Position numbers and translations under genes: made by a program
In this document: positions 8,494 to 13,420 of the stretch, piece after piece
Numbering within the stretch: the stretch's first letter is position 1
How the letters are laid out: each line of letters begins with the position of its first letter
Notes under the pieces: generated by a model
Told to the model about the DNA's origin: nothing
The model's input: only the letters and a program-made list of their open reading frames with translations
The model's database searches: none
From: Methanobacteriota archaeon
GTDB taxonomy: Archaea > Methanobacteriota > Methanobacteria > Methanobacteriales > Methanobacteriaceae
NCBI GenBank assembly: GCA_963787255.1
Contig: CAWBCJ010000010.1
Location: forward strand, 148,373 to 212,372
Direction of reading: 5' to 3'
DNA: 64,000 bases

Positions 8494-9285
8494 ATGGGTG
8501 AAAAAATGAAACTGGATGACGTAATAATATCAAAAGCAATAATTCAGAGCTTTATGGAAGATTTCATTGATTATACAGACATTGATGTAGCAATAGGTGG
8601 GGGAGGACCAGCAGGACTTACAGCAGGTTATTACCTTGCCAAGGCAGGTCTTAAAGTTGCATTATTCGAAAGAAAATTAAGCATAGGCGGCGGAATGTGG
8701 GGCGGCGGCATGATGTTCAATAAAATAGTCGTTCAAGAAGAAAGTAGAAGAATTCTCGATGAATTCGGAATAAGAACCCAAAGATACGAAGAAGACTACT
8801 ATTTAGCCGACTCTATAGAATCTGTTTCAACTTTATGTTCTAAAGCAACCCAAGCAGGCCTTAAAATATTTAACCTCATGAGTATTGAAGATGTAATGAT
8901 CCAAGAAAACGAAGAAATTACAGGGCTTGTTTTAAACTGGAGTGCAGTTGAAATGGGAGGATTACACGTTGATCCACTAACTATAAGAACAAAAGCGGTT
9001 GTTGATGCAACAGGACACGACTGTGAAGTAGTAAAAGTCGTGGAAAGAAAAGTTGGACCAAATCTTAACACAAAAACTGGTAAAATCATTGGAGAAAAAC
9101 CAATGTGGGCAGAAGTTGGAGAAAAAGCACTTATGGATAATACTAAGGAAGTCTATCCAGGATTATACGTTACAGGAATGGCTGCAAACGCTGTTTACGG
9201 ATCTCCAAGAATGGGTCCAATATTTGGCGGAATGCTGTTATCCGGTGAAAAAATAGCTCAAATACTCATTGAAAAATTAAAATAA
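8494..9285 (+). CDS. thi4: Sulfide-dependent thiazole synthase Thi4
   Basis: [19 protein letters not shown] (His-type), DATGH and [10 protein letters not shown] motifs. Confidence 0.95.
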
Positions 9286-9290
9286 AAAAA

Positions 9291-9851
9291 ATGATAATTC
9301 TAATTACAGGAACTCCAGGAGTGGGAAAAACCACTATTTCTAAAATTCTAGCAGAAAAATTAAATGCTCATCTTTTAGCCATCAATGAATTGGTGGATGA
9401 AAAGCATCTTTATACGGGCATTGATGAAGAACGAGGATATAAGATAGTGGATTTAGATGCCCTGTTTAATGAAATAGATAATATCATTGAAAAGGTTGAT
9501 AAATCTGATTACATTATTGTGGAAGGTCATCTTTCACATTTTTATGAAAATTCAGATACAGTAATTGTTTTAAGGGCTAATCCTGATATTTTAAGGGAAC
9601 GTTTAGAAGTTAAAGGCTGGAAAGAAGCCAAAATAAATGAAAATATTGAAGCTGAAGCCATTGGAGTTTGTTCCTATGAAGCCTATGAGATTCATGGGAA
9701 GAAAGCCAATGAAATAGATACAAGTAATATTTCTCCTCAAGATGTCGTTAATTTGATAATTGATGTGATAAATGGTGAAAAAAGGTTTCCTGTGGGGGAT
9801 GTGGATTTTCTGGAGTATTTAGGGAAGTTTGATATTTACTCCAGTTTGTAG
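9291..9851 (+). CDS. Adenylate kinase, AK6/Fap7 family
   Basis: ITGTPGVGKTT P-loop, VEGH motif, KINENIEAE. Confidence 0.9.
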   Translation: MIILITGTPGVGKTTISKILAEKLNAHLLAINELVDEKHLYTGIDEERGYKIVDLDALFNEIDNIIEKVDKSDYIIVEGHLSHFYENSDTVIVLRANPDILRERLEVKGWKEAKINENIEAEAIGVCSYEAYEIHGKKANEIDTSNISPQDVVNLIIDVINGEKRFPVGDVDFLEYLGKFDIYSSL

Positions 9852-9920
9852 ATAGTTATATAATTGGATTGGGGGTTTTAGAATTTTCTTCTATTTGATC
9901 TAATTTAAGGATAAGCGAAT

Positions 9921-10985
9921 ATGTACGATATAACGATTGTTGGAGCTGGACCTGCTGGTTCTGCTTTAGCAAGACTTCTAGGTAAAAAGCATAAAATACT
10001 GTTGTTAGACCGGCGTGAGTTAATATCATATAAAGAAGGTTCTTTTGAGAAATGTTGTGGTGGGCTTATTGCGCCAGATGCACAATATATGTTAGCTGAA
10101 CTCGGTTTAGGAGTACCTAAGGACGTATTAGTTGGTCCACAACTTTTTACTGTAAGAACCATCGACATTCAGAATAACATAGAGAGGTATTATCAAAGAC
10201 ATTATATTAATGTTGATAGGGAAAAGTTTGATAAATGGCTTGTATCTCTTATACCATCAAATGTAGATATTCGTTGCGGGACATTATACAAATCATACGA
10301 AAGTAAGGCTGATAAAATCATTGTCAATTTTTTATCAGACGGAAAAAGATATTATGAGGAAACAAAATTCTTAGTGGGCGCCGACGGGGCAAATTCTCTT
10401 TTGAGAAGACAACTAACAGGTAACAAGTTTGAAAAGATGTATATATCCATTCAAGAGTGGTTCAAAGTAAATCAAAATCAGCCTTATTACTCAGCGATAT
10501 TTGATAATGATATATCTGATTTTTACTCGTGGACTATTCCTAAAGATGGCTATTTGATTGTTGGGGCGGCAATTACGCCCAAAGATAACGTAAATCAAAA
10601 GTTCGACTTACTAAAAGAAAGATTAATTAATTATGGTTTTGAGCTTGATAGAAGTGTAAAAAAGAATGGGGCCTTTATATTAAGACCTCAAAGTACTAAG
10701 CAGATATTTCTGGGAAAAGATAACGTGTCACTTATTGGCGAGGCGGCGGGATGGATTAGTCCGACGTCTGCAGAAGGGCTGAGTTATGCTTTTAAAAGTG
10801 CAATTGCCTTAGCTAAAAGTTTTGATAGCAATCCTGGAAATTTAATAGGGGAATATTACAAGAACACAAAAGGACTAAGGATTAACATTTCACAGAAAAA
10901 CTTAAAGTCTCCTTTTATGTATAATCCATTAATACGGAAGATATTTATGAAATCGGGGATCTTAAGTATGAATATTAATAAATAA
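9921..10985 (+). CDS. FAD-dependent oxidoreductase, CbrA/geranylgeranyl-reductase-like, bacterial type
   Basis: GAGPAG, KCCGGL, GADGA and IGEAAGWISP motifs (GEAAG in place of GDAAG is typical of the CbrA group). Confidence 0.8.
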   Translation: MYDITIVGAGPAGSALARLLGKKHKILLLDRRELISYKEGSFEKCCGGLIAPDAQYMLAELGLGVPKDVLVGPQLFTVRTIDIQNNIERYYQRHYINVDREKFDKWLVSLIPSNVDIRCGTLYKSYESKADKIIVNFLSDGKRYYEETKFLVGADGANSLLRRQLTGNKFEKMYISIQEWFKVNQNQPYYSAIFDNDISDFYSWTIPKDGYLIVGAAITPKDNVNQKFDLLKERLINYGFELDRSVKKNGAFILRPQSTKQIFLGKDNVSLIGEAAGWISPTSAEGLSYAFKSAIALAKSFDSNPGNLIGEYYKNTKGLRINISQKNLKSPFMYNPLIRKIFMKSGILSMNINK

Positions 10986-10996
10986 AACCATATATA

Positions 10997-11071
10997 GTCT
11001 AACAGGGTATTGCTGTAACTTAGCAGGATGAATGCGATCAGGACGCTATAGGAATGCCCAGAACGTTAGGT
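10997..11071 (+). mobile_element. attC-like integron cassette recombination site
   Basis: GTCTAAC (RYYYAAC) 11 bp after the stop codon, GTTAGGT (GTTRRRY) at the other end, 75 bp long, imperfect internal inverted repeat GGGTATTGCTGTA / TATAGGAATGCCC. Confidence 0.55.
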
Positions 11072-11401
11072 GGAATCAGACGTGAATGCGCTCGCCGTCT
11101 TGGCACTGATTTTGGGGATGGGATTTGAAGACTTAAAAATAAGGAGATTTTTATCTCCTAACATTTTTAAGTGTGAGTACCTTTTTAAAAGTTTGATAGA
11201 AAAGCTTTTTAAATAGAATAAGAAATAAATTATAATATTATTCTTAAGTAGATTGCACATTATATTGAGGTTTATTAATAGCACTGATTCAATTGTAAAA
11301 AAATGCTGTGTTTTAGTTGATTCAGTAATTCAAACCCCTGATAAAGGCTTAAGATCCATTTCTATATTATAGCACCATACGATTTCATTAGAGGGTAAAC
11401 T

Positions 11402-11773
11402 TTGAGAAGGGGAAGAAGACCAAAATGGATGTTAAAGATAGCAGGAGAGAGAATTGATATTCTCTTTAAACTTGCAGAAGAATCCTTTGATAAACGCCCT
11501 GAAAGGTCAGATCGCTATGTTGAAATGGCAAGAAATATAGCTACCAAATATAATATGAGAATGCCAAGAATCTGGAAGAGGAGATTCTGTAAAAAATGTA
11601 ATAAATTCCTAAAACCTGGAAATAACTGCCAGATCAGGTTAAAGGATTCACGTGTTACTATAAAATGCCTTGAATGTGGAAATGTGGTTAACATTCCATA
11701 TATAATGGAGAAAAAGGATAAAAGGAGGAAAACTATTGAATCCTACATCATCAAAAAAGGAATTAATGAATAG
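11402..11773 (+). CDS. rnp4: Ribonuclease P protein component 4 (Rpp21)
   Basis: IAGERIDILF and the KRRFCKKC...CLECG zinc ribbon. Confidence 0.95.
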   Translation: MRRGRRPKWMLKIAGERIDILFKLAEESFDKRPERSDRYVEMARNIATKYNMRMPRIWKRRFCKKCNKFLKPGNNCQIRLKDSRVTIKCLECGNVVNIPYIMEKKDKRRKTIESYIIKKGINE

Positions 11774-11999
11774 ATCACTTTCAACAATCACCATAAATAT
11801 TGGAAAGTCTGGAATAAATGAAAATGTTATAGAAGAAATAAAAAGACAGCTTAAAGCTCACGAAGTAATAAAATTAAAATTTGCAAAAAATATATCTTCA
11901 GAGAAACAAAATTATATAAATAATATAATTGAAAAATCTAACTCTAAACTAATTGATTTAAGAGGAAATGTTGCTGTTATATTTAAAAGAAAGAGATAA
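11736..11999 (+). CDS. YhbY/CRS1 RNA-binding protein
   Basis: INIGKSGI...HEVIKLKF...RGNVAVIF; conserved position before rps19e. Confidence 0.9.
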
Positions 12000-12013
12000 T
12001 TAGGAGGATTAAT

Positions 12014-12451
12014 ATGACTACAGTTTACGATGTACCTGCAGATTTGCTAATAAGTAATGTTGCAAAAGAATTAAGTGAAAATAAGAAAATTAACTCGCCA
12101 GAATGGGCTAAATTTGTTAAAACAGGAGTTCATAAAGAAAGAAGACCCGAAGACATGAACTGGTGGTACACACGATGTGCATCCATCTTAAGAAGAGTGT
12201 ACATAGATGGCCCTGTTGGACTAAACAGTCTAAGATCATACTACGGCGGAAAGAAGGACAACGGCACAAACCCTGAAAAATTCGCAAAAGGAAGCGGTTC
12301 TATAATACGAACAGCACTACATCAACTTGAAGATGCAGGATATGTAACAAAAATTAAAGAAGGAAGAATTATAACCCCTGAAGGTAAATCTTTCCTTGAT
12401 AACTCATCAAATATTGTTAAAAAAGAAGTTCCAGAACTTGCTAACTATTAA
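12014..12451 (+). CDS. rps19e: 30S ribosomal protein S19e
   Basis: [28 protein letters not shown]. Confidence 0.98.
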
Positions 12452-12491
12452 ATAAGTTGATCAGACTAAAAAATATCATGGAGGCGGGATT

Positions 12492-12827
12492 TTGAGCGAT
12501 ATTGAAGAATTAAGACGAAAAAGAATGCAAGAGCTACAACAACAGGCTGCAGCACAGCAGACAAATTCATATGAACAAGAACAGGCTCGCCAGCAATTAG
12601 AAGCTCAAAAAAGACAAGTTATGGTGCAAATACTGACTCCTGAAGCTAGAAGCCGACTTGCAAACCTTAGATTAACCCGACCAGAAATGGTTGAACAGCT
12701 CGAACTTCAACTTATTCAACTTGCCCAGGCGGGTCGAGTTAATGCAAAAATAACTGATGAACAGCTGAAACAACTCCTTAAAAATCTTTCTGGTCAAAAA
12801 AGAGAGATAAACATAACAAGAAGATGA
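12492..12827 (+). CDS. PDCD5-like DNA-binding protein
   Basis: [19 protein letters not shown]. Confidence 0.95.
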
Positions 12828-13420
12828 AAACGTGTGTTCTCTACAGCGGGGGAAAAGACAGTTCCCTTATGGCTGTGATACTTCAAAAATTAGGTTATAA
12901 AATTGAACTGGTAACCTTAAACTTTGGAGTTTTCGATTCATTTAAACCGGCAGCACAATCAGCAGCATCCCTAGGCTTTAAACACCATATTTTAAAGGCA
13001 GATACAAAAATTGTTGAAAAAGCAACCAGAATAATCATTGATGATGGATTTCCCAACAATGGAATTAATTACATCCATAAAGAGGCGCTAGATATTGTCG
13101 CTTGTTATTACGATGTGGTTGCAGATGGAACAAGAAGGGATGACAGAATTCCTAAGCTGGAAGGAAGAGAAATAAACAGCCTTGAAAGCCGGAAAAATGT
13201 TGAATACTTGACTCTCCGTGGTTTTGGACATAAAACAATAAATAATTTATCTGAAAATCTCTTTGATGTCAAGAAAGAACAGACTAGCATGAAAAATAAC
13301 TCCGATTACGAGATTGAAATCAGATACCTTATAAACGAGATGGAAGGAAAAAAGTCAGCTGATAATATATTTCCAAGCCATATACAATCTAGAGTGGTAG
13401 GCTGGAAAAATGAAATTTAA
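12824..13420 (+). CDS. PP-loop superfamily protein conserved in the archaeal rps19e-rpl39e cluster
   Basis: SGGKDS PP-loop, [12 protein letters not shown]. Confidence 0.85.

Follow-up and report, generated by a model that had tools for sequence, protein, structure and literature searches.

A bacterial-type CbrA-like gene between two conserved genes of a methanogen, and the attC-like stretch that follows it

The AK6–rnp4 locus and its flavoprotein gene

The window, that is, the whole 64,000-nt stretch of DNA analysed here, belongs to the genome of a methanogen, as the profile search for MCR alpha (215 bits) indicated. The region of interest extends from a nucleoside kinase gene to the gene of an RNase P protein and contains the following features.

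9291–9851, plus strand: AK6-like nucleoside kinase gene of the host, left neighbour (Pfam AAA_18, 4.9e-28; 71–82% nucleotide identity to 17 same-genus genomes)
9852–9912: host spacer with the left junction zone (local alignments to the same-genus genomes G017, window 9804–9870, and G003)
9921–10985, plus strand: horizontally acquired gene of a CbrA/PRK11445-type FAD-dependent oxidoreductase, geranylgeranyl-reductase superfamily (NF008519, 443 bits)
10986–11141: foreign GC-richer 3′ flank, single copy (composition, absence elsewhere)
10997–11071, plus strand: "attC-like" 75-nt stretch with two core motifs and an imperfect inverted repeat (sequence)
11142–11172: terminator-like 7-bp hairpin (AGGAGAT/ATCTCCT) with T-runs on both strands, right junction zone (consensus scan)
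11195–11401, plus strand: promoter-like conserved block and rnp4 leader of the host (77–91% nucleotide identity in 20 of 22 same-genus genomes)
11402–11773, plus strand: right neighbour, rnp4, coding for RNase P protein component 4 with an Rpr2 domain (Pfam PF04032, 2.7e-20; present in 25 of the 26 genomes searched)

The ORF located on the plus strand at 9921–10985 (stop codon at 10983–10985) codes for a protein of 354 aa. That a CbrA-like gene stands between AK6 and rnp4, as an earlier note on this DNA had stated, was confirmed by the profile searches: the product matched the NCBIfam model NF008519/PRK11445 (CbrA-type FAD-binding) over its full length with 443.2 bits (curated cut-off 303), residues 1–352 being aligned to profile positions 3–351 of 355. 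The TIGR02032 model of the geranylgeranyl-reductase superfamily gave 122.8 bits, which is below its cut-off. Matches to Pfam FAD_binding_3 and NAD_binding_8 and the N-terminal GAGPAG dinucleotide-binding motif are those of an FAD protein. The best-known relative, CbrA (YidS) of E. coli, is described as an FAD protein that belongs to the CreBC regulon and protects against colicin M (PMC3599342). The window protein shares with it the superfamily, the GAGPAG motif and the full-length match to NF008519, an equivalog model built around CbrA, but it is nearest to the Clostridia and Desulfotomaculia versions and not to the enterobacterial one, and its gene resides in an archaeon with isoprenoid ether membrane lipids. 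By analogy with the proposal made for E. coli CbrA, the product may be a flavin-dependent reductase with a polyprenyl or isoprenoid lipid as its substrate, and such an enzyme in an isoprenoid-lipid archaeon would be a sensible candidate for functional testing.

Distribution and relatives of the gene

In a DNA search of 314 genomes of the family, the insert (9881–11150) was recovered from its own genome only and from 0/313 others, the six remaining rows being 37–44-nt matches to the N-terminal nucleotide-binding motif. The closest protein found among 40 relatives, of which 22 belong to the same genus, was a 30% paralogue. Comparison of the AK6–rnp4 adjacency in sister genomes, recommended in the earlier note as a check, showed that the two genes are neighbours in all of the 17 same-genus genomes examined, where AK6 and the rnp4 leader are 29–404 nt apart, versus 1378 nt in the window (9821 to 11199). 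The gene is thus a true insertion. Vertical inheritance at this locus across the relatives, which the note had named as evidence against its own proposal, was not observed, since the family relatives lack the gene.

Among 8000 scored candidates, 3744 homologues were found. Within the best 120, all named homologues belonged to Bacillota, and they included Pelotomaculum sp. FP (78%), Clostridiales (approximately 71%), Desulfitibacter, Gracilibacter and the "CbrA" of C. pasteurianum (63%). The best species-representative locus was that of a Pelotomaculum MAG (L049; 81% at the amino acid and 81.4% at the nucleotide level), and two metagenome contigs (L066 and L067) likewise encode proteins 81% identical to the window protein. 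Nucleotide similarity to the homologues is limited to 9913–10977 (left edge at 9913–9921). On a quick maximum-likelihood tree (24 rows, midpoint-rooted, L002 and L006 left out because they were translated in the wrong frame, L052, L058 and L060 kept with a stop symbol), the window protein groups with the Pelotomaculum locus L049 and the metagenome contig L066, basal within the Bacillota clade, which long branches part from the paralogues of the archaeal relatives. Because the gene is bacterial in type, unique within the family and interrupts the conserved AK6–rnp4 adjacency, it is regarded as foreign. The cross-domain acquisition of a bacterial-type gene unique to this species within the family is therefore well supported, and the transfer postulated in the earlier note holds on the family-wide search, the Bacillota homologues and the tree.

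The GC content of the gene (34.7%) is the same as that of the genome. It is worth noting that the CbrA-type genes of the three closest bacterial loci (L049, 3001–4062; L066, 4001–5062; L067, 1850–2911) have 36–38% GC in flanks of 43–47% GC, thus the gene seems to have been acquired in Pelotomaculum-like genomes, too. At the more distant Tissierellia and Clostridia loci, the GC contents of gene and flank agree.

The attC-like stretch

The earlier note interpreted the stretch behind the gene as the attC site of a stranded integron cassette. The positions of its motifs were verified: GTCTAAC starts at 10997, 11 nt after the stop codon, GTTAGGT occupies 11065–11071, and the total length is 75 nt. 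The imperfect inverted repeat is also present, as GGGTATTGCTGTA (11005–11017) matches the reverse complement of 11047–11059 at 10 of 13 positions. Hence the element shows the core arrangement of an attC, that is, inverted RYYYAAC and GTTRRRY motifs 50–150 bp apart, close downstream of an ORF. However, strict RYYYAAC…GTTRRRY pairs with a spacing of 50–150 nt occur 164 times in the 2.47-Mb genome, three of them in the window, so the cores alone carry no signal. From 164 pairs per 2.47 Mb, the chance that a core pair lies 11 nt after the stop of a chosen gene is approximately 0.2%, a figure to be read with the fact that the gene was picked post hoc. The proposed match to attC architecture thus stood for the cores, the size and the position after the stop codon, but failed for the hairpin, the L boxes and the boundary, as detailed below.

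Folding of the bottom strand, one of the checks suggested in the note, revealed no stable hairpin of R and L boxes. Using DNA parameters, the fold had −3.7 kcal/mol without R-box pairing and −3.5 kcal/mol with the R boxes forced, and in energy per base it ranked 106th among the 164 motif pairs; the top strand gave −5.9 kcal/mol. Eight real attCs (aadA1, blaIMP-1, aac(6′)-IIa, dfrA1, aac(6′)-Ib4, aph(3′)-XV, catB2 and a cupin cassette), taken from class 1 integron arrays of nine plasmid records, folded with −16.1 to −38.9 kcal/mol; R-box pairing, with the usual bulges, was seen in seven of them. At real cassette ends, strict cores gave an attC in 5/15 cases and the relaxed AAC…GTT motif with R-box pairing in 10/15. 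Seven of the eight sites came from the relaxed screen and aph(3′)-XV from the strict one, while the qnrVC1 element (−3.0 kcal/mol, clearly not a real site) and the dfrA22 element (uncertain bounds) were left out of the model.

The covariance model built from these sites (R1) is home-made and represents eight class 1 attCs only. Among held-out sites, blaVIM-1, dfrA22 and one site of the locus L100 scored 38–41 bits and arr-2 17.7 bits, while dfrA14 and qnrVC1 were missed, consequently atypical attCs could escape R1. With default filters, no match was obtained in the whole window. With the filters off, the candidate reached 10.4 bits in the 9500–11500 segment (E = 0.11 in 2 kb), relying on the two cores only with 56 inner positions skipped, and a chance site within coding sequence (9928–10010, minus strand) reached 9.7 bits. 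The candidate therefore scores at background level, an outcome that the note itself had counted against its proposal. Moreover, a cassette should be bounded at G/TT of R′, but the foreign DNA runs approximately 65 nt or more beyond this point.

The search for an integrase and for further attC sites, also proposed in the note, gave negative results. No integron integrase was detected in the genome, where the best TIGR02249 match had 89 bits (cut-off 265), and the four PF00589 tyrosine-recombinase matches were all on contigs other than that of the window. R1 found no other attC in the window, and genome-wide the search was by the strict motif pair and its fold. Likewise, none of five bacterial genomes carrying the closest named homologues had an IntI match above the cut-off (0/5), and R1 gave no match at E up to 10 in any of 24 homologue loci, a set that leaves out the contigs of the 83–97% identical proteins. 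Homologues lying in cassette arrays, for which the note had advised to look, or followed by the same downstream hairpin were thus absent from these 24 loci, and it had listed the lack of the hairpin as contrary evidence.

Flank, junctions and origin of the insertion

The claim of the note that the element is GC-richer than its surroundings proved correct, but the note missed that the GC-richer block runs approximately 70 nt beyond the element, to ~11140. Using 100-nt windows, the GC content was 46–50% at 11000–11149 versus 19–31% at 11100–11349. The block is single copy in its own genome, and no copy was found in 40 relatives. By blastn, no match to it was obtained downstream in 32 loci (24 of them with clear homologues), and the genomes of five bacteria that carry the nearest named homologues gave only 16–36-nt matches with E values of at least 0.04. 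The plasmid collection yielded a single 25-nt chance match to the element (blastn), ARAGORN detected no tRNA at it, and six-frame translation of 10986–11200 against the 32 homologue loci revealed no remnant of a donor gene (nothing better than E 0.15). The GC content of 46–50% resembles the 43–47% of the flanks of the three closest bacterial loci, and this composition, which is like that of middling-GC Pelotomaculum-type genomes, suggests that the block may be a piece of donor flank carried along with the gene. An 11-mer is repeated in the block 54 nt apart (TGAATGCGATC at 11029–11039 and TGAATGCGCTC at 11083–11093).

According to local alignments, host-like sequence reaches ~9870–9907 on the left and restarts at ~11146–11182 on the right, positions that are good to approximately 35 nt only, as AT-rich spacers align poorly. 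From ~11146, the window aligns with the G003 spacer. GTTATAT at 9855, considered in the note as a weak 5′ crossover remnant, did not prove to be one: it falls inside the sequence aligning with the AK6 3′-end and native spacer of G017 (window 9804–9870), thus it is host DNA and no crossover scar. It is taken in by a TATA-like TTATATAA at 9857–9864 of the host spacer. No convincing flanking repeat, either target-site duplication or terminal inverted repeat, was found around the insert. Both junctions are perhaps similar to one segment of the G003 spacer, which is too AT-rich to judge. The AK6–rnp4 spacer is variable in length (29–404 nt in 17 same-genus genomes), and in G013 (L026) and G017 (L022) it contains runs of short GC-containing palindromes bounded by GATCCACC…GGTGGA(T/G)G, which resemble a small repeat element. 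The variable length and the palindrome runs suggest that this spacer tolerates or attracts insertions.

The junctions were also looked for in environmental assemblies. Contigs from four studies bridge both of them: in X1 they align with 9770–10528 and 10593–11208 of the window and in X5 with 9291–10017 and 10782–11255. An empty site was not found in the environmental contigs of four runs, where no joint omitted the insert. The 90% protein cluster has 12 members including that of the window, and it is also seen on other contigs, of 55–139 kb. The gene is intact and retained across environmental populations. That the gene lies outside the methanogen chromosome and was joined to it by chimeric assembly or contamination would be compatible with the estimated contamination of the assembly (4.57%) and with another contig of the same genome (C26), which switches abruptly to 55–72% GC. 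Nevertheless, this explanation is exceedingly improbable, as contigs of four separate studies, among them those of X1 and X5, pass from AK6 into the gene and from the gene into the rnp4 leader, and the GC content of the gene equals that of the genome.

We consider it probable that a fragment of approximately 1.25 kb, consisting of the Bacillota-type CbrA/PRK11445 gene followed by some 150 nt of donor flank, entered the AK6–rnp4 spacer by non-integron recombination and that the motifs of the 75-nt "attC" are paired by chance. An ancestor of this Methanobacteriaceae species would have taken up bacterial DNA, perhaps from a Pelotomaculum-like partner, and the gene, together with the GC-richer DNA located downstream of it in the donor, would have entered the spacer by illegitimate recombination. 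Transcription of the gene may start from host spacer signals, for example, the TATA-like TTATATAA at 9857–9864, and terminate at the hairpin and T-run at 11142–11172. The apparent attC site would then consist of two common 7-mers that happen to enclose a weak imperfect palindrome in the donor flank.

In the alternative put forward in the earlier note, a circular cassette of bacterial origin was inserted into a non-canonical site by an integron integrase acting in trans, so that 10997–11071 would represent an attC that is decayed or atypical and the 70 nt behind it the remnant of a donor array. The fit of both 7-nt cores to the consensus, the length of 75 nt, the start 11 nt after the stop codon and the 10/13 inverted repeat agree with this, and archaeal attC sites do exist: clusters, singletons excluded, were reported in 75 archaeal MAGs, and data S1 of the same study includes one Methanobacteriaceae MAG with two attCs (Ghaly et al. 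2022, PMC9668308), thus attCs are not unheard of in the family. Like the cassettes of that work, the locus has a single promoter-poor ORF followed by a short imperfect palindrome within RYYYAAC/GTTRRRY, in a cross-domain context. It differs from them in that the element forms no stable bottom-strand hairpin (−3.7 versus −16 to −39 kcal/mol for real sites), has neither L boxes nor an unpaired central spacer, and scores at the background of the covariance model with no credit for L boxes. Furthermore, foreign sequence continues for at least ~65 nt beyond R′, GTTATAT at 9855 is host sequence, and there is no IntI in the genome or in the five genomes with the nearest named homologues, no second attC in the window, no attC match in the 24 homologue loci, and no cassette-borne homologue. 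On these grounds the stretch was rejected as an attC, and the stranded cassette is not supported as the mechanism. The placement chance of ~0.2% and the archaeal attC record leave a decayed site only a slim chance; if true, a stranded single cassette would document integron-mediated transfer from bacteria to archaea.

A further possibility is that the 3′ block is a functional structured RNA (a stabiliser of the 3′ UTR, a terminator or a small RNA) and not inert flank. In AT-rich archaeal genomes, GC-rich islands are often RNAs, the sense-strand RNA of the block can form a long imperfect hairpin at 10999–11069 followed by the 7-bp hairpin and T-run, and the block is approximately 98.5% identical in environmental contigs (9/616 letters differ). 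On the other hand, the z-scores of the RNA fold (−1.64 on the plus and −2.51 on the minus strand) are unremarkable, Rfam (E up to 1, 9000–13000) matched nothing at the element and only gave a weak gut-2 match within AK6, and no homologous copy was found in the own genome, the 40 relatives, the homologue loci and the five bacterial genomes. We regard a functional RNA as rather unlikely, although deserving more weight than a decayed attC.

In Methanobacteriales, single-gene transfers from bacteria to archaea are general and well documented. As in those cases, a bacterial metabolic gene of near-host composition, with its nearest relatives in anaerobic Bacillota, stands between conserved core genes; the present case differs in that 17 sister species show the empty site and that a short flank of other composition is still attached. 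The latter suggests that the event is fairly recent or that an intermediate donor had a middling GC content. Thus, the transfer between domains is real and of a familiar kind, and the locus offers a clean, datable case of one bacterial gene entering a methanogen, with the empty site kept in the 17 sister species. Pelotomaculum-like bacteria are known syntrophic partners of hydrogen-using methanogens; that they carry the nearest relatives, and that the gene looks compositionally foreign in them as well, hints at gene flow within syntrophic consortia. The data give no evidence for integron activity in methanogens, and they indicate that, in AT-rich genomes, attC core motifs are not a reliable guide on their own.

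Some minor observations concern the neighbouring sequences. In the environmental contigs, AK6 (window 9291–9799) differed at 29/509 letters in X1 and 31/727 in X5, more than the inserted gene (12/759) and its flank (9/616) did in X1 (window 9770–11208), and this lower divergence may reflect recombination or a sweep around the insert. On contig C26 of the window genome (~107.4–132.5 kb; L105, 2400–8001), the GC content changes from approximately 30% to 55–72% over the last ~25 kb. No Rfam family was found in this GC-rich end, for which a chimeric join or a contaminant is the probable explanation and a large island of foreign DNA the other option. The AK6 frame of the window is six codons longer than that of G017 and nine codons longer than that of G005 (window 9804–9851, alignments) because of a one-base difference near the stop codon of the relatives. 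Upstream of rnp4, the promoter-like block GAAAAGCTTTTTAAATAG… and the leader of ~160 nt (window 11195–11401) are as conserved as coding genes, and the promoter core also matches another family. The leader gave no Rfam match. A hairpin at ~11293–11337 keeps four pairs through two-sided changes in the consensus fold of 13 sequences, and the leader may be a regulatory leader or small RNA of the rnp4/YhbY/ribosomal-protein cluster.
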